From Marsupella aquatica (lineage: Eukaryota; Plantae; Marchantiophyta): 64,000 bases of DNA. Shown here piece after piece: positions 1 to 40,301 of this stretch. How positions within the stretch are numbered: the first letter of the stretch is position 1; each line of letters begins with the position of its first letter. Where the stretch lies: contig OZ316897.1 in NCBI GenBank assembly GCA_973895155.1, forward strand, positions 18,863,111 to 18,927,110, read 5' to 3'. The notes below the pieces were generated by a model, which ran no database searches, was not told the DNA's origin, and saw nothing but the letters and a program-made list of their open reading frames with translations. A program made the translations under genes and the position numbers.

Positions 1-141
1 AAATGTTAATAGTAGTAGTAGAAGGTTAGCAGCGTCCCATGCCGCTAAGCCGCGGAAACGGCCTCGCCAAGCACGAAACTTGCGGGAATCGGCTTGAGCT
101 GGGGGGTTTCTTGGGTTTAGGGAGCCATGGGACGCACCACA
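1..141 (+). mobile_element. 3' end of an LTR of the same Ty3/gypsy family, inserted in opposite orientation into the 3' LTR of the element at 142-11202
   Basis: 1-141 is the near-exact reverse complement of 6550-6690 and ends in ...GGGACGCACCACA like the solo LTR end at 35209. It is followed directly by internal LTR sequence (CTTAACGCG..., matching ~11019 onward). Confidence 0.9.
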
Positions 142-325
142 CTTAACGCGCCCTAACCCTAATCGGGTTTTCACCCTCAGCCTTACCTCCGGCCTCTGCC
201 CGGGTTCCATGGTTGCCCCTAATTGTTTATATTTTCCTTGTTTTGTCCCTATACTAAGGTGTTCCTAGGGTGCCTTCCTGCTTTACCCACTTAACCGGCC
301 GAGTGATTCCTGTCTAGGCATCACA
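142..325 (-). repeat. First 184 bp of the 3' LTR, interrupted by the nested insertion
   Basis: Nearly identical to 11019-11202; begins TGTGATGCCTAGACAGG on the minus strand. Confidence 0.92.
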
Positions 326-3300
326 TAGCTCCCCACTTAATTGTGAAGCGTCCTCGCGAACAACTTCATCTTCGTCCATATAGTATTTCTTGAGGCGGTC
401 ATAATGGATGCGAACTGGATATACCTCTCCCGTAATGTTGGCCAATTGTACGGAGCCATTGGGGAACATCATGGTTACTCTAAAGGGTCCTAACCAGCGA
501 GTGTAAAGCTTTCCTGGAAACCTACTATACCTACTGTCATAAAGTAGCACAAGATCACCGGTATGAATACTAACTACTTTTAACCTTTTATCATACTGCT
601 GCTTCATGATATTCTGTCTATATTCTACTCTCTCGGCTGAAATCATTCTCGCTTCCTCTAAAGCTTCTAACCTATATTCTCGCTCCTTTAGGCTCTCCTC
701 CGCTGAGGCTCTTTCCTCAATTGTAACTTGAAATGTCGGTATCTCAAGTTGCATGGGTACCAGGGCTTCTTGTCCAAAGGTTAAGAAGAAGGGTGTATGA
801 CCGGTAGTGGATTTATAGGCAAGATTGTAAGCAAAAACAGCAGCAAACAATTTATCATCCCAATCGAGTTTGTTCTGAGCTACTGTCTTGTTCAATATCT
901 TTCCTATGATTCCGTTTGCTCGTTCTGTCAACCCGTTTGCCTTTGGATGGTAGGGAGTAGTAGGCCTATGTTTAACTAAATACTGCTCATTTAAACGACT
1001 AATTATATCATTCAAAAAATGGGTTCCTCTATCACTAACTAATTCTAGGGGTGCTCCATACCTGGTGAAGATCTGCTCATACATGAATCTAGCCGTAGTA
1101 ATTGCATCATCCTTCATTGTTGGTCTGGCCTCTACCCATTTAGTTGCATAATCCGTAGCCAGGATTATGTACTTGTTCCGTCGAGGGTGGGTCAGTGGTT
1201 TCAGAGGTCCAATGTAATCAATACCCCACTTCTCGAATGGTGCCAGAGGTAGAATAGGGTGCAGTGGATGCCTGGTGGACGCCCTTGGTCCTCCCGCTCG
1301 TTGACAAGGATCGCATTGTTTGATAAACTGATAGACATCTTTGTGCAAGGTGGGCCACCAGTAACCGGCATTTAATATCTTCTTAGACGTGGTTACTGGG
1401 GCAAAATGTCCTCCGGCCTCCTCTCCATGCATGGCCCGTAGGACTCGTTTTACCTCTCTCTTTTCCAAACATCTTTGAATCGTGCCGTTGATTCCATGCT
1501 TGTGCAGTATGCCTTTAATGCACTGATACTGTCTGACCTTCCGCACAAAGACTGCGGCTTGCTCTCGGCTTAATCCTGGCTGTAATCTGGAAGTGCTGAG
1601 AAATTGTAAAATCTCAGGGTACCATGTACCAACTATTTCCACAACGAATAGCTCCTCGTCGGGGAATCGATCATCGATGCAATCCGTGGCAGGTTTACCT
1701 GTGATCCTTGAAAAGAAGTCGGCATTGGCATGTAACTTTCCCGGCTTGATCCTCAGCTCATAGTCAAACTCCTGTAATAGCAAAATCCATCTTGCTACTC
1801 TGCCTGTAAGGTCCGGCTTATTGACTAGGTACTTCAAACTTTCATGATCAGTATGAAAGATTACCTTGTACTCTAGTAAATAATGCCTAAACTTTTTACA
1901 AGAATAAATGACTCCTAATGCTTCTCTTTCCGTGGTAGAGTAGTTCCGTTCGGCATCGGCAAGTTGACGGCTTGCGAAGTATATGGGATGGTCCCTTCCT
2001 TTCTCATCCAACTGACTTAGTACTGAGCCAATACAGAAGCCCGAGACATCTACAAAAACATGAAAATCTTTGTTCCAGTCCGGTGCTATCATGACTGGGG
2101 CCTCTACTAACATCTGCTTCAATTCTACCACCGCTGTGACTCGTTCGGGTGTGGGTTCGAAGTCTGCTCCTGCCTTGAGCATATTGGTTAATGGTAAAGC
2201 CAGCTTGGCAAAATCCTTGATGAACCGGCGATAGTAACCAATGCATCCCAAGAAGGATCTTACATCCTTTATGTTCTTAGGTTGCATGATATCTAGCCAT
2301 ACTGCTAGCTTACCTTTGTCAATCTCAATGCCCTTCCTTGATACCTTGTGACCTAGTAGCACCCCCTCGGTTACTGCAAAAAAACATTTATCTGGGTGTA
2401 ACTTGAGACCCACCTCTCTACATCTCATGAAGGTTTTCCTGAGGTATTTAGCATGTTTCGATGCCTTCCCGAATACTGCAAAGTCATCAATGAAGATTTC
2501 CATGAACTTTCTCAAGTAATCATGAAAAATGTTCACCATTAATCGTTGGAACATAGCTGGTGCGTTGCAGAGTCCAAACGGCATACGATTGAAGACATAG
2601 ATCCCCCATTCCGTGATGAAGGCCGTCTTGATTTGGTCTTCCTGCCGAATCCTGATTTGGTTATAACCAGAGTATCCATCCATGAATGAATATAGTTCAT
2701 GACTGGCTACCATGTCTAGTACCATATCAGTAAACGGTAAAGGAAAATGGTCTTTTAATGTTGCTTCATTCAGCTTCCTGTAATCCTGACAAACCCGGAT
2801 CTTGGGTTTACCATCGGGTCCAGCTTTCTTGGGAACTATCACAATTGGAGACACCCAGTCTGAATGCAGGACTGGAGTGATGAATCCAGCTTCCACTAGT
2901 TTGTCGATTTTTGTTTTGACCAGCAGGGAATACTTCGGGTTCATCCTTCGAATTGGTTGTCGAAATGATTTGGCTCCTAACATGAGATCAATTCGATGTT
3001 CCCCTAGTGTTGGATCTACTCCCTTTAGATCTTGGTGACTCCATGCAAACACATCCTGAAATTTAATCAATAAGTCACTGATCTCTTTCTCGAGCTCAGG
3101 TGCTAGGTTTCTCCCTAAGTTCAGTTCTCTTCCCTCTCCTAAGTCGAGCTTCCGATATTGCCGTGCTTGGATCATATTAATCTGCTTCTTCAAATTCGGG
3201 TCCAGTTCGGCTTCCAGTCTCTCTAATCTCATACCTCCATAAACTGGGATCTCGGCTGGACTAGCCGAGTCGGTCCCTTCCTTGGTGTCCATAGATTGTC

Positions 3301-3556
3301 CCCTTACCGGTCTATTCGGTTTTGAATTAGTGGTCGTCTCCCCTTCCTGCCTTGGCTCTGGATCGTGTCTGTCCATCTCATCCACTTCTTGCTCCTGAGA
3401 GTTAGGCCGCTGTGCTCTCTCGGCTTCTAATAGGGCCTCAATTTGTTCTGCCCTCGTAATCGGCTTGTATGCCGATCCCTTGGTATTTAATTCCTTGCCG
3501 ATGATCGATGGCGTTGTGGACCCCGTCGGCTCTGCCACAACGCTTGCAGAAAATCC
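314..3556 (-). CDS. pol: Pol: reverse transcriptase - RNase H - integrase, reached by -1 frameshift
   Basis: RT motifs MDGYSGYNQI, MPFGLCNAPAMFQR and FIDD; RNase H FVDVSG...ERNYSTTEREALG; integrase GGHF...CDPC, WGIDYIGP, SDRG and NGLTER. The ORF is open and its stop lies just inside the 3' LTR. Confidence 0.93.
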   Translation of the reverse strand, partial: GFSASVVAEPTGSTTPSIIGKELNTKGSAYKPITRAEQIEALLEAERAQRPNSQEQEVDEMDRHDPEPRQEGETTTNSKPNRPVRGQSMDTKEGTDSASPAEIPVYGGMRLERLEAELDPNLKKQINMIQARQYRKLDLGEGRELNLGRNLAPELEKEISDLLIKFQDVFAWSHQDLKGVDPTLGEHRIDLMLGAKSFRQPIRRMNPKYSLLVKTKIDKLVEAGFITPVLHSDWVSPIVIVPKKAGPDGKPKIRVCQDYRKLNEATLKDHFPLPFTDMVLDMVASHELYSFMDGYSGYNQIRIRQEDQIKTAFITEWGIYVFNRMPFGLCNAPAMFQRLMVNIFHDYLRKFMEIFIDDFAVFGKASKHAKYLRKTFMRCREVGLKLHPDKCFFAVTEGVLLGHKVSRKGIEIDKGKLAVWLDIMQPKNIKDVRSFLGCIGYYRRFIKDFAKLALPLTNMLKAGADFEPTPERVTAVVELKQMLVEAPVMIAPDWNKDFHVFVDVSGFCIGSVLSQLDEKGRDHPIYFASRQLADAERNYSTTEREALGVIYSCKKFRHYLLEYKVIFHTDHESLKYLVNKPDLTGRVARWILLLQEFDYELRIKPGKLHANADFFSRITGKPATDCIDDRFPDEELFVVEIVGTWYPEILQFLSTSRLQPGLSREQAAVFVRKVRQYQCIKGILHKHGINGTIQRCLEKREVKRVLRAMHGEEAGGHFAPVTTSKKILNAGYWWPTLHKDVYQFIKQCDPCQRAGGPRASTRHPLHPILPLAPFEKWGIDYIGPLKPLTHPRRNKYIILATDYATKWVEARPTMKDDAITTARFMYEQIFTRYGAPLELVSDRGTHFLNDIISRLNEQYLVKHRPTTPYHPKANGLTERANGIIGKILNKTVAQNKLDWDDKLFAAVFAYNLAYKSTTGHTPFFLTFGQEALVPMQLEIPTFQVTIEERASAEESLKEREYRLEALEEARMISAERVEYRQNIMKQQYDKRLKVVSIHTGDLVLLYDSRYSRFPGKLYTRWLGPFRVTMMFPNGSVQLANITGEVYPVRIHYDRLKKYYMDEDEVVREDASQLSGELCDA
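326..340 (-). promoter_or_regulatory. Polypurine tract (TTAAGTGGGGAGCTA)
   Basis: Purine-rich run immediately before the TG of the 3' LTR on the minus strand. Confidence 0.75.
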
Positions 3557-6480
3557 ACTGTCCCTGCTACTGCTCCCCACTTAGCCGTTTCATCCAATTG
3601 GTCTACATCCTTTACTTCCTCCGGAATTGCAGCTAAAAAGGTGGATTCTATTGTAAAGCAGTCCTCGACCTCTTCGTCTTCTTCTTCCAAGTCACCTTCC
3701 ATTGGTTCTTGCCATAATCCGCTGGGGGGTACCTCTGGTCCAAAGACACCTTCTTTGGTTAGGTTAGTGAGGCATTCTAACCAACGTACTTCATCGGCTG
3801 ACTCCAGTCCACTATCGTACCCATCTACTTCCCTTATGCTTTTCCTACGGTCATCCTTAGTGTCCCAGGATACCGTGATAGAGGGGGTCCCGAAAGTGAA
3901 CTGCTTTTTACCCCAATCTTCTATTACCTCGGCTAGGTACAGCCATGGCCTACCAATCAATAGCCGGAATGACGTAGGATTTACCGGCTTCATTACTACA
4001 TAGTTAATGCTAAAGAAGATACCTCCTATCTCTGTCTTGATGCCGGTTAACACTCCCGTCGGAATGACCTGATATCCATTGGCCATGTTCAACACTCTTC
4101 CAGTCATCTCCGGTGTTAGACCCCACCCTTTTGCTGTTGAATCAATCATAATACATACCCCTGATCCTCCATCGATGGGTACCCGTAGTAATAATTCTCC
4201 TTGAATCATTAATGGTAATGCTGGGGCTCCTTGATCTTCTTCTATCATTAGTACGTCGGATCTGGTTGCTACCTTGGGTAATCTCGGCTTGCCGAGAATA
4301 GCCTTCCTTAATTGCTTCCGGAAGTACGGGCTATTTTTCAATAGTTGACCTACTGTTGCCGAGACTCTAGATTCTAGTACATCTTTAGCCAGGTCATAGG
4401 GAACAATCGGCTTCTCTTCTGGTGGTGTTTCCGTCTTGGATTCGGCCAGTTTTGCCACGCTAGTCTCCACAGCTGTTGGGTCTTCCGAAGCAAACAATGC
4501 TTTTGCTCGTTTTACATCCTTGGCAATGGCTTCGGTATTCTCCAGGGTTTCTAATTCTCTTAGTTGTTCCTTAACACTAGCCGTGACAGAGGGGTAGAAC
4601 AACTTAGGATGATCTCGATTGAAGTCGCTATCTTGTGAAGGATTGGTTTCACTGGTGGGCTCATGGCTTACCTGTATTGCCGGAGCCCTCCCTTCTCCTT
4701 CTGTTGATGTTGACGAAGAGTCGATCCTTTCCTCCGTAACCTTCCCTTTATTTTTGGCCAGCCCATCCCACCTTTCCTTCCTTCTGGTAGATCGAGTAGA
4801 GACCCGGTAGCAATCATGATCTAAATCCTCCTCTGAGAAGGTTGATAGGGCTTCGGCCTCATCATCAGATGGTACGAACTCTGCCTCGACATCCTCTTGC
4901 CATCCTAGTTCGATGTGGTTGATTTGAACTCCTCCGGGGGTAGTACCTGGCGGTAAGATCTTGATTGGCAAAAGCTTATGATTTGCGGCCAGGCCTGCCA
5001 ACCAAGTAGGACATTGCCCTAGCATATGACCTTCCTGTCGGCATCCCATACATAGCTGAGCTGGTTGTCCATCACCCTGTTTGCGTGCATTCGGGCATTC
5101 TCTAGCAAAATGGCCAGGTTGACCACAATTATAGCACGCCGCAAATCTTTGCACATTCGGCCTAGGAGGTACTGACGGGTTCTGAATAATCCGAGGATAC
5201 ATCTCTCCTGGATTGTTCCTTAACCCTGACCACAGAGATGCAGGTCTGTTGGATAGGTCTCGTGCTCCAGTCTCACTGATGCCGAAAACACTATCAGCGG
5301 CATCTCCCAAAAAGTACTCTACTTCTCCCTGACATGGTCTGATCTCGGCCACATGCCGAACATGATTAGTATTAAGCTTAGGACACGCATCTTTATGGTG
5401 TCCGGTTTTATAACATAAGGCACACCATACAGAGCTATCCTCCTGTACTACCTTCTTCTTTGGTTTTACCTCTGCAATGATAGCCTTAAGTTGCTCGGTA
5501 AGGGCTACGATGTTATCTGGTGGCTTAGCCTCCATCTTGACTTTCGTCTTCCCTCTCCTTCTGCCCTTCCTTTTCCTAGTTTTTTCTTCTTCAGAACTAG
5601 AAGATGACTCACTCTTGCTACTCCCACTATCCGAGCTTGACTTATCACTTCTAGACTTCTTGGGATGTTTCTTCTTCTTATCTTTTTTCTTATGGGGTGA
5701 TCCCTCCTCTGATGAGGAACTCTCAGACTTAAGCTGTTTCTTCCGGCTTGTGATATCTGCATTAATGTATAATTGAATATCCTTAATTGCTTCGGCTAAA
5801 GTCTCCGGGTTCTCCTTCCTAATTGCAAAACTCATCTTCTGTGGCAAAGCATTCACCAACCATTGAAGTTGCATACCTTCAGATGCATTGGTCTTTGTAC
5901 GTCTTACCAGTTTCTGAAAGCGTTGCAAGAACTTCCTGAAGGATTTGTTCTCCTTGAACCGAAGTTGTCCCAACTTCAGCACTGCTAGTTCTGAAGTTCC
6001 AATGGGTCAAAACTCCTTAACAAAGAGTGTTTTGAAGATATCCCAGATGGCTTGATCTTCCACATCTAATGCTCTGTACCAAGGCCTAGCCTCACCCTTG
6101 AACAGGTCGGGAAGAATCTGCATCTTGATGGCCGATTCTCCATTTGCTGCAGCGGTTCCCTCGAAATCATCCAACCATTCGTCCGGATCCTCATCTCCTC
6201 TCCCATGAAATGCCTTGTAATGTATGCGCGACCGCTGGCTCAATTTGGTCCCTGGCCTCTCGTCTGCCCGTGCCTCTGGTTCCCCCATGTCGGTTGGAGA
6301 CTCACTTCTCCTTACCGACTCTTCTTCTGGTATGTCTTCTTCGACGCCACTTCCAGTTTCGGAGCTACCAGCTCTTTTTGCCCCTCTCAGTCGCTGTGTA
6401 TCATGCCACCCGGCGAGCTGCTGCAGTCGAGCTCTCTCCCGTTGAATCACTCTTTCTTCCCTCGGCGTAAGGTCAGTCAT
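3487..6480 (-). pseudogene. gag: Gag-protease ORF with one in-frame premature stop (TGA 6009-6007)
   Basis: Capsid-like FHGRGDEDPDEWLDDFE, three CCHC knuckles (CALCYKTGHHKDAC, CYNCGQPGHFAREC, CMGCRQEGHMLGQC), and aspartic protease VPIDGGSG...LLIGRPWL. ORFs 6007..6480 and 3487..5982 are in the same frame across a single TGA. Confidence 0.88.
3497..3556 (-). promoter_or_regulatory. Programmed -1 ribosomal frameshift signal (G GAU UUU, 6-nt spacer, 9-bp stem, possible pseudoknot)
   Basis: GGATTTT at 3556-3550 is in the correct gag phase. Spacer CTGCAA, then GCGTTGTGG (3543-3535) pairs perfectly with CCACAACGC (3519-3511). pol is in the -1 frame relative to gag-PR. Confidence 0.8.
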
Positions 6481-6528
6481 TACCTACGCTTCCGTTCTAA
6501 CTTCATATCTCATGGCTTAAGAAATGCC

Positions 6529-6545
6529 CCCTCCATCTAGCGCCA
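6529..6545 (-). promoter_or_regulatory. Primer-binding site TGGCGCTAGATGGAGGG
   Basis: Starts with TGG (complement of the tRNA CCA end) 4 nt after the 5' LTR end. TGGCG-type PBS is typical of the Athila/Tat group. Confidence 0.8.
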
Positions 6546-6549
6546 AAAA

Positions 6550-9500
6550 TGTGGTGCGTCCCATGGCTCCCTAAACCCAAGAAACCCCCCAGCTCAAGCC
6601 GATTCCCGCAGGTTTCGTGCTTGGCGAGGCCGTTTCCGCGGCTTAGCGGCATGGGACGCTGCTAACCTTCTACTACTACTATTAACATTTTACACACATA
6701 TACTGGACAGATCCTTCATCGGGTCATGAGATACGTAGCCGGCCTAATATAGGCCTTCCCCTGTCTTCCCCTGTCTTCCCCTCCGTCTTGTTAGGTATGT
6801 TTGGATTCCGCCGCCGGAATGATCCCCAATAGGCTTGGTTAAGCCGCTAAGACCTCTCTCAGCTCGACACATCCAACTCTCACTCCCCTGCTTACTTTCC
6901 TTCCTTCTGTTGATGTGGGCACTCTTCACACAAGTTAATGCGACACACAAATAGCAAAATGACTCATTCTGACTGAGTCATACCATGCACTTGCCATACA
7001 AACAGTACATCTCATACACAAGTTCTGCGAACTAAGCCGTGAGGCCAACTCTATTCAACTCTTAGGCATGAGGAAACATGAATATACACAAGGGTCACTG
7101 TATGACTAACCGAGAGCTTCTCGTACTACTTGATCCCAGCCCGGCTGGTGCAAACTAAAAACTTGCTAAAGAAGAGGCCCTGAGCTCCCCGCTGCCCAGG
7201 TACTTATCCTGGTAGTGGATCCACCATTCTTTGCATCGTAAGCCTAATCTACCTGACAGTAATCTACTTGCGCGAATCTACCTATGTACAGCAAGGCAGG
7301 AGCACAAGTGTTGCTCCTACCAGTGGAAGCGCAATCCCACTAAGCTAAGTGTCAGGGCCGTTCCTGGTTCTGATCCTAATCCTAAACGTGGAGATCCGCG
7401 CCCGCCCTGCCCACTCACGCCTCCTCCCTCCACGTCCGCCCTCCCTAAAAGGAACGGCGCCCTTGCACCGTCACGACACCGGTGGTGGATCCTCAATGGA
7501 CGCCCCCAACACTTCCTCCTCAGCCACTGCCGTTGGCCCGCCTACTGACAGATTACCTGCCCTTGACCGAGTCAACTCTCCATCGGCCTGACTGGGTCCA
7601 CCTTCGGCTTCAGCCTCGACACCGGCCTCGGCAATACCCACGGCTTCGGCCTCAGCCACTCCCACGGCTTCGGCTTCAGCCACTCCCTCGGCTTCGGCCT
7701 CCCCTTCCCCTAGGGTAGTTGGATCCTTAGCCGTGACCCTGTCTGGGGTCGGTGCTGGGTCTACCTCCTTGATCACCACGGCCTGTGAAGTCGTATTACT
7801 CCTTGACCCTGAAGGTTTCCGCTTCTTCTTCGTTGGTGGCTCGGCAGCTGGTCCCTTCCCCTTCCCACTTACTTCCGGCACTGGTGCAGTTGACGCGGCT
7901 TGTCCTTCGGCAATTACCACCCCTGGTAACTGGTTTGTCCCAACGGGAGATGGACCTGCTGCAGCTAAGCATTTAAATACTGCGGCTTGTTTCTTCAGCC
8001 GCTCTGTTTGGTTGTCGGCCCGCCGCTGTAGGTTCTCCATCTTCCTCGTGATTTCCTCCAACTCCTCTTGGGTTTCATCCAGGTCCTTACGTGCCCCCTC
8101 CAGCTCGTTTTTGGCCTCCTCCTGCTCCCTGTGGGCTTCCTCCAATTCCTTCTTCAAGGTAGCCCTCTCCTCCTGGGTTGCTCTTAGCTCCTTGTCGAGC
8201 TCTGCAATGATGACAGACTCCATCTGGTTCATCTTGGCGTAAGTCTGTTCGAGCATCTCGTCCTTCTCCCTTAGGTCGGCCTTGAAGCTGGCCGTCAGGG
8301 ACGCAAGCTCCTGCTGCAGCGCCATAATCCCTTGATAGGATTTCCCTAACTCGACCTCCTTCTGCTCAAGGGCTCCGCAGATTTTCTCGAGCTCCCCTTT
8401 CAACGCCCATTCCTTTCTTTGGGTCTCCGCCATGGCCCGGCTGTTGGCTGTTATGTGGGCCTCCTCTGTATTCTTCAGCTCTTGCTTCCACTTCTCCCTC
8501 TCTTTGATCGTGTCGGCCAACTCTTCCTGCGTCTGAGTCAGTTTATCCTTGATATTCTGATTATCAGCCTGCGCGGTGTCCAACTGCCCCTGCATGATGT
8601 TCAGCTCATGTCGTTTAATCCGCAGTTCATCTTGGGCTTTCTTGGCCGCCCTTAGATCTTCAATCTCGGCTTCCATCCTCCTAAGCCGCCGAATGACCTC
8701 GTCCTTCTTGCTTCTCTCTAAAGCCACCGCTTCTTCTAATTGGTGCTTCTCCAACTGCTCCCTATGGAAAAAGGGTCCTACCTCCAACTCCTCTCCAAAG
8801 ATGCCGAGCGCAAGTTCCCCACACATCTCACCATACTCCATGGCTCTATTCTTAGCGTAGGTGGAGTAAGTAGAAGTGATCGGCATCGCCCATCGTGGCC
8901 TCTGCTCCCAAGCCGTCCTGCGGATCTCTTCAATCGTGGCTAGAGGTTTGCTTCCTTTTTCGGCTAGCCGCCTGATGTCCTCCGGCCAATCTCCTCCTGG
9001 TAAATCCTTTTCCTTAGCCAGGGCGGCCTCTTCCTCCTGCTTGATTCGCTCCTGAAATTCCTGCACCGTCTGTTTTATGCCGTCGAAGCTCGGGGGAGCA
9101 ACATCTGGTGGGGGAGACTCAGGGCTACTCTGCTGGTTGGGGTCCCCTCGCACTACCCTTGGAAGTGTGGGGACAAACCGGCCACAGGTCCTTACTCCTG
9201 ATGGTCCGACCCATAGCCGGAATTATCATGGCTGCAGTCCTCCACTGCCTCCTCTACCTCTTGGACGTCCGGCTTCTCCCTCTCCTCTTCGTCGGTAGGA
9301 GCTTCAGGCAATTATGCCTCAGATTCGGAGCTTGAGGTTCCCACGTACATTCGAACACCTGGCTTGGATTCCGGCCTGATTCTCTCCTTGTCTCCAGCAA
9401 AGGGGTTTTCTCTTGTGAGCCGGTGTAGGCCTACCTCTGTAGTAGTGTCCTGCATTGTTGCCGTTGCCGTTGTTGTTGCCGATGCTGATTTCTTTTCTTT

Positions 9501-11202
9501 CTCCAGTAGTTTCAGCAGACTCTGCATGCCTGGTTGCTGCATCGGCAAGTCTTCCTTCCTGGGCCTAAACACCTGCTCGATCGTAGGACTAACAGGTGGT
9601 TGAGGCTTCTCAGCCAACGGCCTCGGCGTTGGAGCTTCCTCGGGTGCCCTTACCTGCAGGGGAAGTACCGGGGCAAAAGTCTGACCTCTGGCATACCGGC
9701 ACAACAGCGGCATGTGATAGCCAAGCCGCGACACGCTCCCCATGTCGATTACCTGCTGCTCCTCCTTTAAGATCTTCTTCAATTGGTTGAGGAGGTACCC
9801 GTTGTAGTCCCGGCTTGGGTCTGGCCTTTCTGCCAGATAGACCTGTGCCTTGCCGATCTCTGCCCTCGGCAAGTTACAATGCATGGTCACCCGCAAGAAG
9901 TCGATCATCTCTCCTATGTGCGGGTTGGTGCAGGTGTTCCGGAAGAAGCCATTCTTCGTTGATGGCCCGGGGAACGACCGGAACTCCTTGTCAGGCAGGG
10001 TCTTCCTGGTATCAACTTTGGTCTTATTGCCTATCGGCAAGCCAAACACTTCGGCAATTACCTTGGGAGTAAGATAGAAATCCTTCCCATATATCCTCGT
10101 GCAATTGGTCTCGGGTTCCCATGACCCCACGAATTCTAATAGGTCTGACTCCGGTACCTCCGGCTTCAACCATGGTAATCTTACAAAGGCCTCCAAGCCG
10201 GATCCGGCCATGAAGCCTTGGTACTTCTTGGTCTGCATGGCCGTAAAGCATGCATCCTCCTCCCGTGCAAAATGTAGTTGCACCTCCACCGGTAGGGTTG
10301 CCGCCCAGCCCTTCCAGGTGTCATCCCTGGTTGGAATGGCCTTGATGGGATCGACCTCCTCCTCTTCGGCTTCTCCCTGCCTCCTGCTCTGCTGCTCGGC
10401 TGGCCTCTTTGGTGCCGCCGACCTCGTTCTTTTTGCCGGGGTGACTTCATCGTTGACGGCCCCCTTCCTCTTCATCTCTGCTGCCGTGGAGGTTTCTCCT
10501 AGCACCGTTGCCTGGGTCCACCTTTCCGTGCTACCCTTTAATTCCCAATGTATGTCGTTGCAGTTCTTGATGGCCTCTCGGATGCCGACGACGCTGTCTT
10601 TGCAAAACAGAAGATCGTCGAGTTGATTGGAAGTAGGCGTCCACAGGAACTCGTCCTTGATGAGTTCGCCTCCTAAGAAAGCCGTCTTCTGCAGCTCCCA
10701 CAATCGAGCGAGCTCCTGCCGTTCTCGAGCTGCCCTTTCTGACTCCTCGTCCTCGTAAGTCTTGATGTACTCAGTTGCCCGTTCGAACAGGCATCCCCAG
10801 AAATGTGCCGCTTGATTGACGTTGCTCATACCCTCCTTAGGTCGATCGTCGGTATCTATTCTCTCCCCGAGTGCTTGCCTAAGCAGCTGACAGTAGTTGG
10901 CCTCCCGTAGTCATCTGCCTAGTTCGTGCTCGCAAATGAGCCACCATCTCCTGCAAGCGCTCCTTACCCCTCTCCTCTGCCGGTCCTTCTTCCCGTTGAT
11001 CCTTCCTAGCTGCCGACGCTTAACGCGCCCTAACCCTTATCGGGTTTTCACCCTCAGCCTTACCTCCGGCCTCTGCCCGGGTTCCATGGTTGCCCCTAAT
11101 TGTTTATATTTTCCTTGTTTTGTCCCTATACTAAGGTGTTCCTAGGGTGCCTTCCTGCTTTACCCACTTAACCGGCCGAGTGATTCCTGTCTAGGCATCA
11201 CA
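6550..11202 (-). repeat. 5' LTR (4653 bp)
   Basis: TG...CA ends with imperfect inverted termini TGTGATGC/GCACCACA; colinear with the TSD-flanked solo copy at 30520-35209. Confidence 0.92.
7471..11087 (-). pseudogene. LTR-encoded accessory protein (plant-transposon/Athila-ORF2-like domain plus long coiled coil), disrupted copy
   Basis: Same ORF as 30635-34291, with stops at 10913-10911 and 9314-9312 and a 7-bp deletion near 9200. Confidence 0.8.
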
Positions 11203-26124: not shown

Positions 26125-28131
26125 ATGTCACGTCCAGCTTATCTGCCCCTCAGTATCAACTTTGATGCTGTGAAAGTTTCCATGGAAGACCCAGAGGAGG
26201 TGGAGAAGGTTCGAACAGCTTTGCGGTCAGCACATTCACTGATTGATGCTTTCAATCAGAGTTGGCAATTCATGGGAGGAACTGGGACGAAGGAGTCACG
26301 ATTTTTGGAATACCTTCAGAACATAGAAGAGAACGCTCCAGCATCCGACGTTGAGCCCGACATTCAAGCACCAGAGTTCTTGCGCGACCTTCCGGGGGCA
26401 TCACTTGATCCTCTTGCTTCCTTCCCGCCCTTGATGGACTCAGTCTGGGACTATCCCTCGTTCTCTGGGATGGAGTCGGATTCACAACCACCCTGTGTTA
26501 CTCCCATCAAGAGCCAAGTGAGGATTCAAAGATATGAGCCTGATGATTCAAGTACAGAGTTGCGGACACACAGAAGGCGACGTCGTTCCCGTTCTTTGAG
26601 TAGCAATAGTAGCATTGAGAGGAGACAAAAAAAAGGGGAAGGGAAAGGAGCGCAGAGAAAGAGACAGCCGCAGCACAACAAGAGAAAAAGGGTTGAACGA
26701 GATTCGAGGGTGGACAGAGATAGGAGAGGTCGAAGGTCACATCGACATTCACATTCAATCGGAGGAGGTCATCGGCGAGCTTCTCCTAACCGAACCGTTG
26801 CTACTCTTGCCAGCAAAGAACAACTGCCGGTCATCAGCCTGGCTGCTTTTGATGCGAAGCCAGAGGTGCTTGATGAGAAGGCGCTAACGAATCGAGTGCA
26901 GGTCTGCTGTACGAAACACTGCCCTGGGTGGACGACTTGGAAGGACCTCGTGCACAATACAAAGAAGTTTCAAGTACTCCTCAATGACATACAGGCCGGA
27001 TTCAAGAATGGCAGAGAGATTGATTTTCGACACATCAGGCAGAAGATTGTGAGTTTCCTTGCTGACAGAAGATTCAGGTGGAGAAGCAAGGTCCGAGCAA
27101 TGAAATGCGAGAAGACAGGGCAGTACCGTAAGCCTGAAGGGATGGCCGAGTCGGACTTCAACTTGATCGTGTCTGAACTTGAAGCACCCCCAGACACCCT
27201 AGTAGGAAAATGAGTGCACATGGGTGACAAAGCCACTGCAGCTCGAAAGAATAGCGGACGCCTTCTAGTAACCAATTTCTGGGGGCAAGGAGGATGGCGA
27301 GGGTTCCTCGCAACCTACGTAAGTCTCGGACCCAACTTCCACATTTTCATTTTGCTGCTCCGGTGTAAACCATAGTGTAACGTCGAGATTTTGAAATTAC
27401 GTCGCCTGATTCATTCATAACGTCGTCCATAACAACGTTAACTTTGATTTGTAACTTCATCTTAGACGTACCTTAGGAAGAACGTCGTCCTTGAGACATT
27501 ACATGTACCGCTTTAGTGAAAATGTCGTTAGAGCGACGTTAACTAGATATGCAACGCATGGAACGACGTTAGCACCGATGCTGAGAGGGTTGAATACGTG
27601 CTTAGGAACGACGTTCTTTTGCTTTCTCGCAGAAACGCAAGTTTGGTGTCGATGCCGAGCCGTCGGAGGAGGAGCGGCTGTACTCGAAACGGTATGGCCC
27701 GGCAGCGCTATGGGCCAAGTTGGCCTCAGTCCCGGAGGATCACCGGGTAAGAGCTAAAGTGATTGCTAGGTTGTAGTTGACTTTAGGCCTACTCTGTGAC
27801 ATTAACTGACCAGAATGCTATCATGCAGGTGGAGGATTGGACTCCTCCGGAGGGCTTGGTTGCACGGGCCATCCCTGAGGATCACTTGCCAGCCAGGGTA
27901 CCGCCCGAGGAGGGTTTGCAGGAGGAGGCTCACGTAGATTGCGGGCAGGAGGAGGGAGAGACTCATGGGGGGCGTACTAGTGGCCAAGGCCGGAGGGAGA
28001 GAGAGAGAGCCAAGGGAGGGAGAGAGAGGGAGATAGGGAGAGGTCAGATAGACAGAGGGGGAGGGAGAGGGAGAGGAGGAGGAGGGATGACACTAGGCGA
28101 CCTCCACACAGTAAGGGGAGTAGGCCAGTGA
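26125..28131 (+). pseudogene. TnpA/Ptta-like second gene of element B, divergent from the transposase
   Basis: WTTWKDL...KFQVLLNDIQAGF...FLADRRFRWR...KPEGM...FNLIV pattern and NFWGQGGW resemble En/Spm ORF2 proteins. In-frame TGA at 27211; further exons at ~27633-27746 and from ~27829. Confidence 0.6.
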
Positions 28132-30519
28132 CTACTCATAGGGCTGCAACACAAGCAGATACGTTGTCCCCCAGTACCACTAGCTTAGAGGAGGATGACT
28201 CCAGGTACGAGTTGCGCCCGAGAGGCGTACAACCCACTTCTACAAGCAGGTCTGGACGTGATACCAGGCGGACTGAGCGTGACTAGGGTATAGCCTATTT
28301 TACTTGCCCGACTTCATCCTCCATTTTGTACATATTTGGCCCATAACAATATTATCTAATACGACACTTTTCGCGGATTACAACGTCTATACCATATGCA
28401 TATTGAATGTGTATCCCTAAACCCCAACTGCCTACCCAAATAATGCTCACCCCATTGTAACCCTAGCTTAAGTGTGTTTATAACCTCCAATAAGGTTGTA
28501 TGGCAGGGTCCGACATAATATACGGGGCGTCGTTCATTCATAAAGTTACCAAGCTTCTCACAAGGTATGACCCAGACGTAGTCTTCCACTTTCACACAAC
28601 GTCGTTCATGACATCGATATATGATAACAACGTCTTATCACACCACGTAAACCAATGAACGAATTCACATTACATCAAACGGAACGGTGTCCCAGACATC
28701 GTTACAAACACTGACGTTGTCTTATACGAGGGAGTCAACGTCGTCAATCACGACGTTTTGTTTGTATTAACGTCAGTTCGTGCGACATTCAATGGACATG
28801 GAAATCTACATTAGCCCAGTACTCTAACGATGCATAGGACGTTGTGCACACAAAGAACCACGTTGGCGGTGTGGCAATGTGCGTTGTGTGAGACGACGTA
28901 AGAAACCACATCAATATAGACGTCCGGAACGTTGCCAATTTTACCTTGGGGATTCCGTGTTTCCATTTAGAGTTTCATACGTCGAGATTAGCCTGTTGTG
29001 AGGCAACGTTAAGTTAAGTCAAAATGTAGTTGTGAAGGGAGCAGCATAAACCAATGCTTTATGGATGGCAAAGCACTAGGACTGAGCAACGCAAATAACC
29101 TTGGCCTATGATTGGAAGCAATCACAAATATTGCAACCTGTATGCCTTTGCCTTCTGTCCAGCAGTGCTCACTCACCCTGCCTTTTTTAAATCTGTAAGG
29201 GCAACACAAAACAAATAGCAATTGAGTTTCAGCAAAGCATTGGTTCTCAAGTTTTAAAATGGACAGACTTGTTTCATTGTCTGCCTTGTGCGCAGCAGGC
29301 TAAGACCGATCAGGGCAAATAATTTATATATTCAAGTAGTGAGAGCTACAAAATTTGCTGGGACAGTTTTCTAGTTCTGGATCCTGCTGCGCTTTATATA
29401 CAGCAGCAACCTGAATTCAATTTTTATAGACCATTAGATTGGGGTGTTTCTTTTCACCACGGCTATTACTTCAATGAAATCACTATTGTTTCATGTTTAC
29501 TTCAATAGTCTCGTGGCAATCGAAGGGTTCGGAACTTAACATAGCAGACACAAAAAATGTATGCTAAGCAGGAGGAGAAACAGGGCAATAGAGCAACATA
29601 GCAAGAAGGCAGGGGTAGCATGGCAAAAGGAAAGAGTAAATTGAAACTATGAAACATAGCCAGATTGAAGGGGAAGAAGAGCACAACCTCTTGCAGCTCC
29701 CGTTTCTCCTCCTGTAGCTCCCGATGTAACCTCCCGCAGCTCCCGCAGCACACTGACAAACGGTGAGACCTCCTGCAGCTCTTCCCGCAGATCCTGCCTG
29801 TTGTGACCTCTTGAAGCTCCACCAATGTGACCTCCCGCACCTCCACCACTTCTCTGTAGCTTAGTTATCCCCAATCATAGCTTGCAGCTCCTTCCCAATG
29901 AGCCCTAAACCACTCCTCGCAGCCGAGCTCGCAGCTTATGACCCGCAGGTTATCACCAATCACAGCTTGTCGCCCTTCGCTGAGGTAGCCTCCCGCAGCT
30001 CCTTTGTAATGTATTGTCCCAAGTCTCCTCCTCACCCACTGGTTATCATCGATTGCACGTCGTCGCCCTTTGCAGCTTTCTGAGACATATAGCTCCAACA
30101 TTAACGCCAAATGCTCCGCAATGTTGCGTGACACTGCAACAATGGATTGGAGCTCTTCCGTGGTAGTAGCTCCCAAGTCCTACCGGCTCACCCTAAGCTT
30201 TCCTACTCCCCTGACCGCGCACAGCACCCTGATACAGTTTTTGGGAAGAAACGGAGTGCGCACTCCACAAAGCTGTCTCAACTCGCAACTGAACTCAAAT
30301 GCGCCCCGCACTCCATGCACATTGCCCACCGCCACATTCCTTTGATGAAAACGCGCACCTCAACCACAAAAACCCTACATTTCACAACTTGGGCTCGACT
30401 CGATATTTGCCGTTGTGCACCTCCAATGCAGATTTGCCGACCACTTTTGTTCCGAGGGCCTACTACAAGAACGCGGGAATTGGAGCACGATGTTGATTGT
30501 ATGATCCAGGGTGTGATCT

Positions 30520-33500
30520 TGTGATGCCTAGACAGGAATCACTCGGCCAGTTAAGTGGGTAAAGCAGAAATGCACCCTGGAAACACCTTAGTATAGGGAC
30601 AAAACAAGGAAAATATAAACAATTAGGGGCGACTATGGAACCCGGGCCGAGGCCGGAGGTAAGGACGCTGGGGGTGAAAACTCGATTAGGGTTAGGGCGC
30701 GCTAAGCGTCGGTGGCTAGGAAGGATCAACGGGAGGAAGGACAGGAAGAGGAGAGGGATAAGGAGCGCTTGTAGGAGATGGTGGCTCATTTGCGAGCACG
30801 AACTAGGCAGACGACTACGGGAGGCCAACTACTGTCAGCTGCTTAGGCAAGCACTCGGGGAGAGAGTAGATACCGACGATTGATCTAAGGAGGGTATGAG
30901 CAACGTCAATCAAGCAGCACATTTCTGGGGATGCCTGTTCGAACGGGCAAGTGAGTACATCAAGACTTACAAGGACGAGGAATAAAAAAGGGCAGCTCGA
31001 GAACGGCAGGAGCTTGCTTGATTGTGGGAGCTGCAGAAGACGGCTTTCTTAGGAGGTGAACTCATCAAGGACGAGTTCTTGTGGACTCCTACTTCCAATC
31101 AGCTCGACGATCTTCTGTTTTGCAAAGACAGCATCATCGGCATTCGAGAGGCCATCAAGAACTGCAACGACATACACTGGGAATTGAAGGGTAGCACGGA
31201 AAGGTGGACCCAGGCAACGGTGCTAGGAGAAACCTCCACGGCAGCAGAGATGAAGAGGAAGGGAGCTGTCAACCATGAAGCCACCCCGGCAAAAAGAACG
31301 AGGTCGGCGGCACCAAAGAAGCCAGCCGAGCAGCAGAGCAGAAGGCAGGGAGAAGCCAAAGTAGAGGAGGTCGATCCCATTAAAGCCATTCCAACTAGGG
31401 ATGACACCTGGAAAGGTTGGGCGGCAACCCTACCGGTGGAGGTGCAACTACATTTTGCATGGGAGGAGGATGCATGCTTTACGGCCATGCAGACCAAGAA
31501 GTACCAAGGCTTCATGGCCGGATCCGGCTTAGAGGCCTTTGTAAGATTACCATGGCTGAAGCCGGAAGTACCGGATTCAGACCTATTAGAATTCGTGGGG
31601 TCATGGGAACCCGAGACCAATTGCACGAGGATATATGGGAAGGATTTCTATCTTACTCCCAAGGTGATTGCCGAAGTGTTTGGCTTGCCGATAGGCAATA
31701 AGACCAAAGTTGATACCAGGAAGACCTTGCCTGACAAGGAGTTCCGGTCGTTCCCCGGGCCATCAACGAAGAATGGCTTCTTCCGGAACACCTACACCAA
31801 CCCGCACATTGGAGAGATGATCGACTTCTTGCGGGTGACCATGCACTGTAACTTGCCGAGGGCAGAGATCGGCAAGGCACAGGTCTATCTGGCAGAGAGG
31901 CCACACCCAAGCCGGGACTACAACGGGTACCTCCTCAACCAATTGAAGAAGATCTTAAAGGAGGAGCAGCAGGTAATCGGCATGGGGAGCGTGTCGCGGC
32001 TTGGCTATCACATGCCGCTATTGTGCCGGTATGCCAGAGGTCAGACCTTTGCCCCAGTACTTCCCCTGCAGGTAAGGGCACCTGAGGAAGCTCCAGCACC
32101 GAGGCCGGTAGCAGAGAAGCCTCAATCACCTGTTAGCCCTACGATCGAGCAGGTGTTTAGGCCAAGGACAGAGGACTTGCCGATGCAGCAACCAGGCATG
32201 CAGAATCTGCTGAAACTACTGGAGAAAGAAAAGAGATCGGCATCTGCAACGACAACGGCAACGGCAACAATGCAGAACATTGCTCCAGAGGTAGGCCTAC
32301 ACCGGCTTACAAGGGAAAACCCCTTTACTGGAGACAAGGAAAGAATCAGGCCAGAATCCAAGCGGGGTGTTCGAATGTACGTGGGAGTCTCAAGCTCTGA
32401 ATCTGAGGCAGAATTTCCTGAAGCTCCTACGGATGAAGAGGAGAGGGAGAAGCCGGAAGTCCAAGAAGTAGAGGAGGCAGTGGAGGACTGCAGCCATGAT
32501 AACTTCGGCTATGGGTCGGACCATCACGTTCCAGGAGTAAGGACCTGTGGCCGGTTCATCCCCACACTTCCAAGAGTAGTACGAGGGGACCCCAACCAAC
32601 AGAGTAGCCCTGAGTCTCCCCCACCAGATGTTGCTCCCCCGAGCTTTGACGACATAAAACAGACGGCGCAGGAATTTCAGGAGCGAATCAGGCAGGAAGA
32701 AGAGGCAGCCCTGGCTAGAGAAAAGGATTTGCCAGGAGAAGATTGGCCGGAGGACATCAAGCGGCTAGCCAAAAAAGGAAGCAAACCTCTAGCCACGATT
32801 GAAGAGATCCGCAAGACGGCTTGGGAGCAGAGGCCGCGGTGGATGATGCCGATGACTTCTACTTCCTCCACCTATGCTAAAGACAGAGCCATGGAGTACG
32901 GGGAGATGTGTGGAGAACTGGCGCTCAGCATATTTGGGGAGGAGTTGGAGCAGGGACCCTTTTTCCAGAGGGAGATGTTGGAGAAGCGCCAATTAGAAGA
33001 AGCGGTGGCCTTGGAAAGAAGCAAGAAGGACGAGGTCATCCGTCGGCTTAGGGAAAGGGAAGCCAAAATCAAGGACCTAAGGGTGGCCAAGAAAGCCCAA
33101 GATGAGCTGCGGATTAAGCGGCATGAGCTAAATATCATGCAGGGCCAGTTGGATACCGCACAATCTGATAATCGGATGATCGAGAATCTACTGACGCGGA
33201 CCCAAGGAGAGTTGGCCGATACGATCAAAGAGAGGGAGAAGTGGAAGCGAGAGCTGAGGAATGCAGAGGAGGCCCACATAACAGCCAACAGCCGGGCCAT
33301 GGCGGAGACCCAAAGAAAGGAATGGGCGTTGAAGGGGGAGCTCAAGAAAATCCGCGGAGCCCTTGAGCAGAAGGAGGCCGAGTTAGGGAAATCCTATCAA
33401 GGGATTATGGCGCTGCAGCAGGAGCTTGCGTCCCTGACGGCCAGCTTCAAGGCCGACCTAAGGGAGAAGGATGAGATGCTCGATCAAACTTACGCAAAGA

Positions 33501-35209
33501 TGAACCAGATGGAGTCTGTCATCATTGCAGAACTCGACAAGGAGCTACGAGCAACCCGGGAGGAGAGGGCTACCTTGAAGAAAGAACTGGAGGAGGCCCA
33601 TAGGGAATGGGAGGAAGCCCAAAAGGAACTAGAAGAGGCGCGCAAGGACCTGGATGAGACCCAGGAGGAGTTGGAGGAAATCACGAGGAAGATGGAGAAC
33701 CTACAGCGGCGGGCCGACAACCAAACAGAGCGGCTGAAGAAACAAGCCGCAGTATTTAAGTGCTTGTCTTCATCAGGCCCAACTCCAATTGGGGCAACCA
33801 AGTTACCAGGAGTGGTACTGGCCGAAGAACAAGCCGCGCCACCTGCACCAGTGCCGGAAGTAAGTGGGAAGGGGAAGGGACCAGCTGCCGAACCAGAAAA
33901 GAAGAAGAAGCGGAAACCTTCAGGGTCAAGGAGTAATACGACTCCACAGGCCGTGGTGACCAAGGAGGTAGACCCAGCACCAACCTCCGGCATGAACACG
34001 GCAATATATCCCGCTATCATCAAAGGTGGGGAAGGTGCGGCCCAAGCCGAACTACTCAGTAATGAGGCTGGTATCCCAGATCTGCCTCTTGAGCAGGCCG
34101 GGGAGGCTGTAGCCGAGGCTGAGGCCGTAGCCGAGAATGATTCCCGAGCCGATGCCGATGGTGGACCCAGTCAGGCCGATGGAAAGTTGACTCAGTCAAG
34201 GGCAGGTAATCTGTCAGAAAACGAACCTACGACAGTGGCTGAGGAGGAAGCGTTGGGGGCGTCCATTGAGGATCCACCACCGGTGTCGTGACGGTGCAAG
34301 GGCGCCGTTCCTTTTAGGAAAGGCGGACGTGGAGGGAGGAGGCGTGAGTGGGCAGGGCGAGCGCTGATTTCCAAGTTTAGGATTAGGATCAGGACCAGGA
34401 GCGGCCCTGACACTTAGCTTAGTGGGATTGCGGTTCCACTAGTAGGAGCAACACTTGTGCTCCTGCCTTGCTGTACATAGGTAGATCTAGGCAAGTAGAT
34501 TACTGTTAGGTAGATTAGGCTTACGCTGCAAAGAATTAGACGGATCCACTACCAGGATAAGTACCTGGGCAGCGGGGAGCTCAGGGCCTCTTCTTTAGCA
34601 AGTTTTTAGTTTGCACCAGCCGGGCTGGGATCAAGTAGTAAGAGAAGCTCTCGGTTAGTCATACAGTGACCCTTGTGTATATTCATGTTTCCTCATGCCT
34701 AAGAGCTGAATAGAGTTGGCCTCACGGCTTAGTTCGCAGAGCTTGTGTATGAGATGTACTGTTTGTATGGCAAGTGCATGGTATGACTCAGTCAGAAGGA
34801 GTCATTTTGCTATTTGTGTGTCGCATTAACTTGTGTGAAGAGTGCCCACATCAACTAATAGAGGAAGGAAAGTAAGCAGGGGAGTGAGAGTTGGATGTGT
34901 CGAGCTAAGAGAGGTCTTAGCGGCTTAACCAAGCCTATTGGGGATCATTCCGGCGGCGGAATCCAAACATACCTAACAAGACGGAGGGGAAGACAAGGGA
35001 AGGCCTAGATTAGGCCGACTACGTATCTCATGACCCGATGAAGGATCTGTCCAGTATATGTGTGTAAATGTTAATAGTAGTAGTAGAAGAAGGTTAGTAG
35101 CGTCCCATGCCGCTAAGCCACGGAAACGGCCTCACCAAGCGCGAAACCTGCAGGAATCGGCTTGAGTTGGGGGGTTGCTTGGGTTTAGGGAGCCATGGGA
35201 CGCACCACA
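30520..35209 (+). mobile_element. Solo LTR (4690 bp) of the gypsy family
   Basis: TGTGATGCC...GCACCACA flanked by 5-bp TSD GATCT (30515-30519 and 35210-35214); no gag/pol inside. Confidence 0.95.
30635..34291 (+). pseudogene. LTR-encoded ~1218-aa accessory ORF (three point stops near the 5' end; 1089 aa still open)
   Basis: ATG 30635 is in frame with 31022..34291. Stops at 30881, ~30983 and ~31019 are sense codons (CGA, TCA, CGA) in the other LTR. Contains LLEFVGSW...IYGKDFYLTPKVIAEVFGLP and a long heptad coiled coil. Confidence 0.82.
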
Positions 35210-35248
35210 GATCTCAGCCGTTGGCACTTGTGTAGGTGCCAAAAATCT

Positions 35249-39400: not shown

Positions 39401-39479
39401 TCAATGACTCTACAATTATGACCGGTGTCTGGAATGACTATTGAGTATTTTAATTTTCATATCTCTTGGGTTCTTTAAT

Positions 39480-40288: not shown

Positions 40289-40301
40289 TTTTCTTCTAGT
40301 G
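40289..40301 (-). mobile_element. Canonical CACTA terminal inverted repeat (CACTAGAAGAAAA); right end of a large CACTA element
   Basis: TTTTCTTCTAGTG ends the ATGAC-rich region and truncates the adjacent transposase ORF. ATA (40302-40304) is the candidate TSD; the partner TIR is not in the window. Confidence 0.8.

Follow-up and report, generated by a model that had tools for sequence, protein, structure and literature searches.

LTRs are usually regarded as non-coding sequence, and a solo LTR as the dead remnant of an element. The gene-in-LTR layout is precedented by MMTV, whose betaretroviral superantigen gene, sag, lies in U3 (PMC4667437). We did not find this layout described for plant elements, and the plant extra-ORF literature covered places such genes internally; in Athila, an extra ORF is present in only about half of the elements (PMC6317226). 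Regarding accessory proteins, DUF1985/VANC has been linked structurally to PMD (bioRxiv 2024.09.27.615353), and VANC and the Athila domain have been modelled as coiled-coil pentamers (PMC13547354). Here we describe a 64,000-nt stretch of the liverwort Marsupella aquatica (the window), in which a selected sense gene takes up most of a long LTR. The limits of this LTR, the gene within it, purifying selection on the gene, its retention in a solo LTR, the many copies of the family and the lack of a transmembrane segment can together be stated with high confidence.

The unit at 30520..35209 (plus strand, 4,690 bp) starts with TG, ends with CA and is flanked by identical 5-bp target-site duplications (TSDs) at 30515..30519 and 35210..35214. 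Inspection of the flanks revealed neither a primer binding site (PBS) nor a polypurine tract (PPT) adjoining it. Being a single LTR with matching TSDs and devoid of an internal region, it is a solo LTR, as the preliminary description had proposed. This reading is strengthened by an empty site: one contig (run X2) links 30514 directly to 35210, omitting 4,695 nt, which corresponds to the LTR plus one TSD.

The solo LTR aligns over its full length, at 91.4% identity, to positions 11202-6550 of the minus strand. This second copy (6550..11202, 4,653 bp) is the 5′ LTR of a gag-pol element, all of whose parts are read on the minus strand. It is followed by the PBS (6528..6545, 4 nt past the LTR), which we take to resemble tRNA-Asn, and then by a gag-protease region with a zinc knuckle (3487..6480) containing one stop at 6007-6009. 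The RT-RNase H-integrase region occupies 314..3580, and a short PPT lies within the final pol codons (326..338). Directly after pol and the PPT, the first 184 nt of the LTR recur at 325-142 with one mismatch in 184 relative to the 5′ LTR, and pol terminates 12 nt inside this 3′ LTR (142..325). After these 184 nt the repeat is interrupted by a nested family member in the opposite orientation, of which the window shows the 3′ end of an LTR (1..141, plus strand), so that the ORF was not observed in a 3′ LTR. Both earlier statements on this element, that the unit is also its 5′ LTR and that pol runs straight into the PPT and LTR with no 3′ accessory region, hold. Two gene copies per element would follow from the way LTRs are made, and the contig depth over the LTR, which is 3.5-4 times that over gag-pol and gives no copy count, fits this expectation; the ORF and the LTR tail are covered to a similar depth.

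The succession of gag, protease, RT, RNase H and integrase, together with the PBS, the PPT and the TG..CA LTRs, is that of Ty3/gypsy elements. In a quick RT-RH tree (SH-aLRT only, midpoint-rooted, built from 79 of 120 pol matches plus the window, with the curated Athila, Phygy and chromovirus references outside it), the element grouped with Calypogeia (SH-aLRT 100), apart from angiosperm Athila-like rows; it thus appears to be a liverwort-type Ty3/gypsy element. Several Athila traits are present, namely the 5-bp TSD and the lack of both an additional (archaeal-type) RNase H in pol (Pfam up to E 0.1) and a chromodomain in the pol region 314..3580. The Athila-type internal extra ORF after pol is lacking, since pol ends within the 3′ LTR. 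Membership in Tat, Ogre or Retand was rejected on the RNase H result, and membership in Phygy or Selgy as defined on the TSD, which is 5 bp here versus 4 bp.

The LTR had been described as carrying a sense ORF of 1,218 aa filling about 78% of its length. A frame of 1,218 codons does span 30635-34291, and the dN/dS comparison proposed at that time was performed between the solo and 5′ LTR copies. Codons 88-1218 gave a dN/dS of 0.26 (p about 1e-25), far from 1 and lower than in any of the 200 neutral simulations, which averaged 0.73 (range 0.50-1.05). Shifted-frame controls resulted in values of 1.15-1.33 in four of five frames; the fifth, at 0.29, is the antisense frame, which shares third positions. 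Synonymous divergence reaches 0.2-0.3 across much of the ORF, and the segment 34520-35120 diverges by 2-2.5%. The LTR ORF is under purifying selection. Codons 1-87 (30635..30895) gave a dN/dS of 1.03 (CI 0.51-2.24) from few changes (3 synonymous and 10 nonsynonymous), and show no similarity to the relatives described below. Since these codons are unconstrained and the N-terminus of a relative, Calypogeia P0129, begins at 30896, the gene probably starts there and encodes 1,131 aa (30896..34291, plus strand), or 72% of the LTR. The ATG at 30635 was accordingly discarded as the likely start, and the first 87 codons are probably a non-coding 5′ leader. The sense ORF inside the LTR is thereby retained and its length revised.

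Both copies of the gene in the window are broken, and by different lesions, as had been reported. The frame contains three stops in the solo copy, including those at 30983 and 31019 within the gene, whereas the 5′ LTR copy (gene at 7471..10829, minus strand) has three different stops, one near 9313, and a 7-bp deletion near 9200. Of the six premature stops, five are found in a minority of contigs, as is the 7-bp deletion, so the checkable lesions of the window copies are rare among other copies of the family. A frame-preserving 3-bp indel had also been taken to indicate an open ancestor; it falls, together with three of the six premature stops, in codons 1-87 and therefore provides no coding evidence.

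Four parts can be distinguished in the gene. A small N-terminal domain (30896..31249, codons 88-205, dN/dS 0.12) is shared with P0129, and a conserved, probably globular core of about 220 aa, belonging to a family without a name, follows at 31400..32080 (dN/dS 0.11). The long coiled coil of the preliminary description was recovered as a predicted segment of about 260 aa at 32975..33754 (simple heptad score, weak coiled-coil Pfam matches, dN/dS 0.17). The low-complexity C-terminal tail (33755..34288) shows little constraint (dN/dS 0.86, several indels), and the NLS-like KKKKRK run falls within it. The highest 19-residue hydropathy of the protein is 0.72, which reveals no transmembrane segment, and an env-like membrane protein was rejected on this ground. 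The selected ORF lies wholly inside the limits of the TSD-flanked 4.7-kb unit, a sag-like layout, which bears out the proposal that the gene is retained in solo LTRs.

The core profile gave 18 matches at E up to 1e-3, two of which (P0128 and P0131) were excluded as unrelated, bacterial-type Ig-repeat and helicase-associated proteins. The core is common to relatives in Calypogeia fissa and other contigs, and P0145 has the same order of N-domain, core and coiled coil. The N-terminal alignment to P0129 is gapless, and its score was reached by 2 of 1,000 shuffles; the similarity to P0142 is not significant, with 70 of 1,000 shuffles reaching the score. Neither the core nor its 16 plausible relatives had a Pfam match up to E 1, and the plant-transposon-type domain previously assigned to the protein is reduced to a sub-threshold lead. 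DUF1985 and PMD appeared at ranks 12 and 17 among the listed hits of an Atlas query (score 0.85), and Transposase_32 and ATHILA at ranks 1-3 of the named clusters in a second one (score 0.77); all Atlas scores are below 0.9 and the named rows share 110-130 features, which is the range of leads only. Kinship of the core with PMD, DUF1985/VANC, Transposase_32 or ATHILA may be suspected from these searches as a weak lead. The profile did not match one Transposase_32-bearing protein (a partial gene model; probability 0.2%). AlphaFold reached a pLDDT of 32.8 with the protein alone and 43.7 with 19 sequences, and the latter model returned nothing at E up to 1e-3 with Foldseek or at Z 5 or more with VIA-align, results that are uninformative at such a pLDDT. 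Equally uninformative either way was a PDB sequence search, whose sole match was a histone (E 0.89). No match came from word-indexed protein searches, whether the query was the entire ORF or, against longer proteins, an alignment, and locus searches of metagenome and viral contigs found no relatives.

The reading that we tentatively prefer, at somewhat less than an even chance, is that a U3 gene with its own promoter specifies a VANC/PMD-like protein, nuclear and with a coiled coil, that would aid the family against silencing. Its origin could be a sense gene in the Athila style, placed between pol and the 3′ LTR, which would have entered U3 when the PPT shifted upstream of it; reverse transcription would then have copied the gene into both LTRs, which would bring the element to about 15.5 kb. 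A TATA[AT]A motif occurs once in the LTR (position 95; 30614..30619, plus strand); it is the same in three copies and lies upstream of the start favoured by selection and homology; the motif is expected 0.79 times per shuffle and is weak alone. From this candidate promoter, an mRNA whose leader measures about 250 nt would run to a poly(A) region in the tail of the LTR. This non-coding tail (34292..35209, plus strand, 918 bp) has low divergence and likely contains the genomic promoter, R and U5, so that genomic RNA would start from a second promoter. The tail is T/G-rich at about 34660-34840, and the supposed second promoter lacks a clear TATA box. We give this two-promoter scheme an even chance. 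A 12-nt purine run just past the ORF stop is a possible relic PPT, but as one of 13 such runs in the LTR it carries no weight. A sigma-70 promoter scan was set aside as inapplicable to a plant element. At the protein level, the core may bind family DNA or chromatin and the coiled coil may oligomerise the protein, a division of labour that is conceivable but a little less probable than its opposite. An undamaged solo LTR would then contain everything needed for expression and would act in trans. In its fullest form, the proposal makes every LTR, solo LTRs included, a self-contained gene (promoter, 1,131-codon ORF and poly(A)) for a VANC/PMD-like anti-silencing protein, with the solos sustaining intact copies in trans; this we consider quite unlikely.

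The alternative that fares best concerns function: the protein might be a particle scaffold, a nuclear-import aid or an integration tether instead of an anti-silencing factor. The selected 260-aa coiled coil would suit such tasks, and import or regulatory roles have been proposed for plant extra ORFs (PMC7264820), while the closest named leads of the core include chromatin and anti-silencing families; on balance we hold this alternative to be plausible, though the chances are against it. The lack of a membrane segment rules out an env-like role but not these three.

Transcription from a single promoter at the 5′ end of the LTR is rather unlikely. U3 would then measure about 125 nt, the gene would lie in R/U5 and come first on the genomic RNA, resembling the 5′ extra ORF of Ogre/Retrosat2 but inside the LTR, and gag-pol would be expressed by read-through and splicing. 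The sole TATA[AT]A at position 95 agrees with this, as do a consensus splice donor at LTR position 140, found in three copies, and two pyrimidine-rich acceptors in the tail (4079 and 4100). However, this scheme requires R to be 4 kb long or the minus-strand strong-stop DNA to reach 4.5 kb. If the RNA that splicing joins from 140 to about 4100 were packaged, short LTRs would be expected, and no such junction is among the 15 of 97 joints listed.

Improbable is a U3 gene expressed solely from the 3′ LTR through spliced or read-through RNA, in the manner of retroviral env or nef, which would leave the 5′ and solo copies as silent passengers. The sense ORFs of the Athila-like Bagy2 do use splicing (PMC7264820), and MMTV sag has transcripts from the 5′ LTR (PMC4667437), but a scan that covered the end of pol and the first, purine-rich 376 nt of the LTR detected no pyrimidine-rich acceptor, and the gene has the conserved TATA box a short distance upstream.

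Finally, that the 4.7-kb unit is a deleted element with short LTRs, the outcome that the preliminary description had named as contradicting it, or that the ORF is a decayed passenger, is very improbable: both copies in the window carry inactivating lesions and the 3′ LTR is interrupted, but blastn of the unit against the window gave no internal terminal repeat, which argues that the unit is not a short-LTR derivative, no abundant short-LTR junction occurs among the contig joints listed, the PPT and PBS of the gag-pol element abut the two ends of the unit, contig depth is even along it, and the dN/dS is that of a selected gene.

A selected 3.4-kb gene making up most of the LTR in a very abundant family means that each solo LTR retains a copy of it. 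If solo LTRs express the gene, recombinational removal of elements would spare the helper protein of the family; were every LTR a self-contained gene, LTR-LTR recombination, the usual means of removal by the host, would leave behind a gene that protects the family. Why some plant LTRs are very long could likewise be explained by an LTR-borne gene, and this one is, by predicted function, a candidate anti-silencing factor in a non-seed-plant LTR retrotransposon.

Among known systems, Athila (ATHILA PF03078 / Transposase_32 PF20167) resembles the element in being a non-chromovirus Ty3/gypsy lineage without additional RNase H, with a 5-bp TSD and a sense accessory ORF (PMC6317226, PMC11728184). 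A tRNA-Asn-resembling PBS, an identity that we assume here, is found in 12% of Athila (PMC6317226). In Athila the ORF is internal, whereas the ORF described here lies inside the LTR, has no Pfam match and is tied to Athila by a weak Atlas lead; the angiosperm Athila-like rows are separate from the liverwort RT-RH cluster that holds the element. Phygy and Selgy, non-chromoviruses of moss and spikemoss, share an internal region that is almost all gag-pol and a non-seed-plant type of host, but their TSDs are 4 bp, their primers Trp or Ala and their lengths 4.4-10 kb, and no extra ORF is recorded for them (PMC6317226); the element described here has a 5-bp TSD and would measure about 15.5 kb. Ogre and Retrosat2/RIRE3 are alike in their LTRs of 3-6.5 kb and in their extra ORFs without assigned function, but these lie in the internal region in Ogre and upstream of gag-pol in Retrosat2 (ORF0), and the cited parts of the sources do not describe them inside the LTR (PMC6431247, PMC3485330). 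VANC (DUF1985) and the PMD proteins MAIN/MAIL1 offer a transposon accessory protein with a globular core and a coiled coil (bioRxiv 2024.09.27.615353, PMC13547354), to which an Atlas lead points here at a score of 0.85; VANC is encoded by eudicot DNA transposons, and its likeness to the LTR-gene protein is a sub-threshold lead.

Like the liverwort gene, MMTV sag is a selected sense gene inside an LTR. The two differ in that MMTV is a mammalian retrovirus and the proteins are unrelated, and in that the gene described here, without a membrane segment, is about 3.4 kb, sag being much shorter. Most surviving copies of the MMTV gene are in solo LTRs (490 of 527 contigs); its dN/dS is about 0.29, and it is served by several promoters, one of them within U3 (PMC4667437).

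The solo LTR at 30520-35209 (+) spans 4,690 bp, starts with TG, ends with CA and has an identical 5 bp at both flanks. No primer site or polypurine tract (PPT) adjoins it, and a contig of the public run X2 links 30514 directly with 35210 and so represents the empty site. Over its full length it is 91.4% identical to the 5′ LTR (11202-6550, −) of a Ty3/gypsy gag-pol element, which is followed 4 nt downstream by the primer binding site (PBS), presumably one resembling tRNA-Asn, and then by gag. The internal region of this element measures 6,224 bp, and pol ends 12 nt within the 3′ LTR, whose start is identical to that of the 4.7-kb unit. Because the family has a PPT at one end of the unit and a PBS at the other, and because no internal terminal repeat was found within it, the 4.7-kb unit is a true LTR. 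The ORF was observed in one 5′ LTR and one solo LTR; it was not seen in the 3′ LTR because the window's copy stops after 184 nt, at the opposite-orientation end of another family copy. Over these 184 nt only 1 position differs from the 5′ LTR, and the insertion of the gag-pol element is therefore young. The second family copy (1-141, +) is inserted in this 3′ LTR (142-325, −); its LTR end, compared with the end of the 5′ LTR, shows 1 mismatch in 135 positions. In the gag-pol element, pol is in another frame than gag-protease and overlaps it at 3487-3610 (−); some contigs are one base short near 3602-3607, either a lesion or a programmed frameshift.

Selection on the ORF was evaluated from the two LTR copies. 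The 1,196 aligned codons together gave a dN/dS of 0.27; codons 88-1218 gave 0.26 (CI 0.19-0.33), below the range of 0.50-1.05 found in 200 neutral simulations. Four of five control frames gave 1.15-1.33; the fifth (0.29) is an antisense frame with common third positions. By region, the values were 0.12 for codons 88-205, 0.11 for the core (256-482), 0.22 for 483-780, 0.17 for the coiled coil (781-1040) and 0.86 for the tail (1041-1218). Three premature stops interrupt the solo copy; the copy in the 5′ LTR has a 7-bp deletion and three stops at other places. Most of the public-run contigs lack the deletion and five of the six stops, while the sixth (30983) is absent from the 40 contig variant rows examined out of 877. 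These data show a selected gene within a genuine LTR. The preliminary description had proposed a real gene, a true 4.7-kb LTR and retention of the gene in the solo LTR, together with the dN/dS comparison made here; all three proposals are upheld by the values of 0.26-0.27 and by the limits set by the PPT, the PBS and the target-site duplication (TSD). The two LTRs diverge unevenly (2-3% at 31520-31920 and 34520-35120 versus 12-15% at 32920-33320), a pattern suggestive of subfamily recombination or of strong constraint acting locally.

The start of the gene had been placed at the ATG at 30635, giving a frame of 1,218 codons (30635-34291). The ORF in the LTR stands, but this start is probably too early: codons 1-87 appear unconstrained, with a dN/dS of 1.03 on only 13 differences, and show no similarity to relatives. 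From codon 88 (Met 30896), the predicted protein aligns without gaps with the N-terminus of the Calypogeia fissa relative P0129 (score reached in 2 of 1,000 shuffles); for the relative P0142 the corresponding match lacked significance (70 of 1,000). The gene thus probably starts at Met 30896 and likely encodes 1,131 aa, 72% of the LTR. The predicted order runs from a small N-domain through the globular core and a linker to a coiled coil of about 260 aa; the loose C-terminal tail that follows bears an NLS-like run, and no membrane segment was found.

The family is abundant, with 14,962 and 26,531 contigs matching the LTR in two public runs, and all 30 LTR bins are covered in four runs, which carry four organism codes. 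Summed contig depth, which is not copy number, is about equal over the ORF and the LTR tail, and 3.5-4 times higher over the LTR than over gag-pol (runs X1 and X2); this ratio does no more than fit elements with two long LTRs each and additional solos. No trace was found of the alternative raised in the preliminary description, in which the 4.7-kb unit would be a deletion derivative of an element with short LTRs: there was neither an internal terminal repeat nor a short-LTR junction among the joints listed (15 of 97 and 15 of 221), all of which had depths below about 800, against 10^5-10^6 overall.

Searched exhaustively, the core had 18 matches at E ≤ 1e-3; two of them, unrelated bacterial-type proteins, were rejected. 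Two of the ten relatives looked up are Calypogeia fissa proteins. The relative P0145 has the same order of N-domain, core and coiled coil, and none of the core relatives has a relevant Pfam match. In the Atlas search of protein-feature clusters, the core retrieved clusters of DUF1985 (rank 12) and PMD (rank 17) at 0.85, behind unnamed clusters at ranks 1-3, and the relative P0134 retrieved Transposase_32 and ATHILA at 0.77. All four are plant transposon accessory or derived families, and serve as leads only. Fold searches, based on a poor predicted structure, gave no informative match. Available parts of two papers link DUF1985/VANC with PMD (bioRxiv 2024.09.27.615353) and model VANC and the Athila domain as coiled-coil pentamers (PMC13547354). 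Because of these leads and papers, our best, still tentative guess is a VANC/PMD-like nuclear anti-silencing factor; a role in scaffolding, import or tethering is nearly as likely.

TATA[AT]A occurs only once in the LTR, at position 95 of each of the three copies; shuffled LTRs average 0.79, and taken alone the motif is a weak candidate promoter. In the available part of PMC11656987, which used the same motif, it is typically central in plant LTRs. A start set by this TATA would fall near position 125, past the ATG at 30635 and about 250 nt before Met 30896. The 918-bp tail is non-coding, diverges by 2-2.5% over 600 bp (versus 0.2-0.3 at synonymous sites in much of the ORF) and contains a T/G-rich stretch that resembles the poly(A) regions of plants. 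On the simplest reading, the tail would be an ordinary short LTR and the upstream 3.8 kb an extension: U3 would have acquired an Athila-style 3′ gene, promoter included, when the PPT shifted ahead of that gene. Replication would be normal except for a long plus-strand strong-stop DNA, and every LTR, solos included, would carry promoter, ORF and poly(A) region. We give about an even chance to such a U3 gene with its own promoter, an expression unit in each LTR. With only one promoter, at the 5′ end, the gene would lie in R or U5; this arrangement is less probable, and expression solely via splicing is unlikely. Three copies share a consensus splice donor at position 140 of the LTR (30659, +), and both full LTRs retain two pyrimidine-rich acceptors in the tail (34598 and 34619, +). 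Short telomere-like TTAGG(G) motifs at about 30680-30700 (after the TATA), 34375-34390 (tail start) and 35180-35190 (LTR end) are possibly telobox-like promoter elements or binding sites.

Elsewhere in the window, a decayed CACTA-like transposon lies at 17226-25678 (−; Transpos_assoc, Transposase_21). An ORF with a SET domain (24123-24971, E 6e-5) separates its transposase parts, and an NSD-like PHD-finger ORF (17226-17897) follows downstream; this may be a transposon-borne chromatin modifier. Near the end of this transposon lies an ORF of 373 codons without Pfam match (26092-27213, +). A second decayed CACTA-like element (12681-16668, −) has Transpos_assoc, Transposase_21, DUF4218 and DUF4216. 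Layered tandem arrays (36160-40010, 42230-42530, 44090-44555; periods of about 575, 373, 83, 73 and 65 bp) adjoin two ORFs at 40296-42149 (−). An ORF of 633 codons (45633-47534, +) weakly matches N6/N4 DNA methylases (E 0.005), and an apparently intronless amino-acid transporter gene lies at 54818-56311 (+; Aa_trans, E 1e-56).

The RT-RH of the gag-pol element shares 69-73% identity with two Calypogeia proteins and a third protein. It groups with these three (SH-aLRT 100), among Riccia and other rows and apart from angiosperm rows, in a tree made by a quick method without curated references from 79 of 120 pol matches (rows covering at least 330 aa that either ranked within the top 74 or were listed by name). 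We call the element a liverwort-type non-chromovirus, without a named clade. The family resembles Athila in its 5-bp TSD and in having neither an additional RNase H nor a chromodomain; Phygy and Selgy, in the available part of their description, differ by 4-bp TSDs. The available part of Neumann et al. (PMC6317226) divides extra ORFs by their 5′ or 3′ position within the element and gives none for Phygy or Selgy; its Athila row holds 47%, in a column made uncertain by a blank cell. Vicient and Casacuberta (PMC7264820) locate extra ORFs in the internal region. The parts available describe no ORF inside the LTR for Retand (PMC11963269), Retrosat2 (PMC3485330), Ogre (PMC6431247) or sunflower Athila (PMC11728184), and that of a liverwort genome paper (PMC12885004) mentions no such gene. 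A search by title and abstract start, most subscription journals lying outside it, found no plant retrotransposon gene inside an LTR. As far as these searches reach, the LTR gene is unusual in size and undescribed in plants. A precedent is the sag gene of MMTV, which, in the available part of PMC4667437, lies mostly in U3, occurs chiefly in solo LTRs and has a dN/dS of 0.289.
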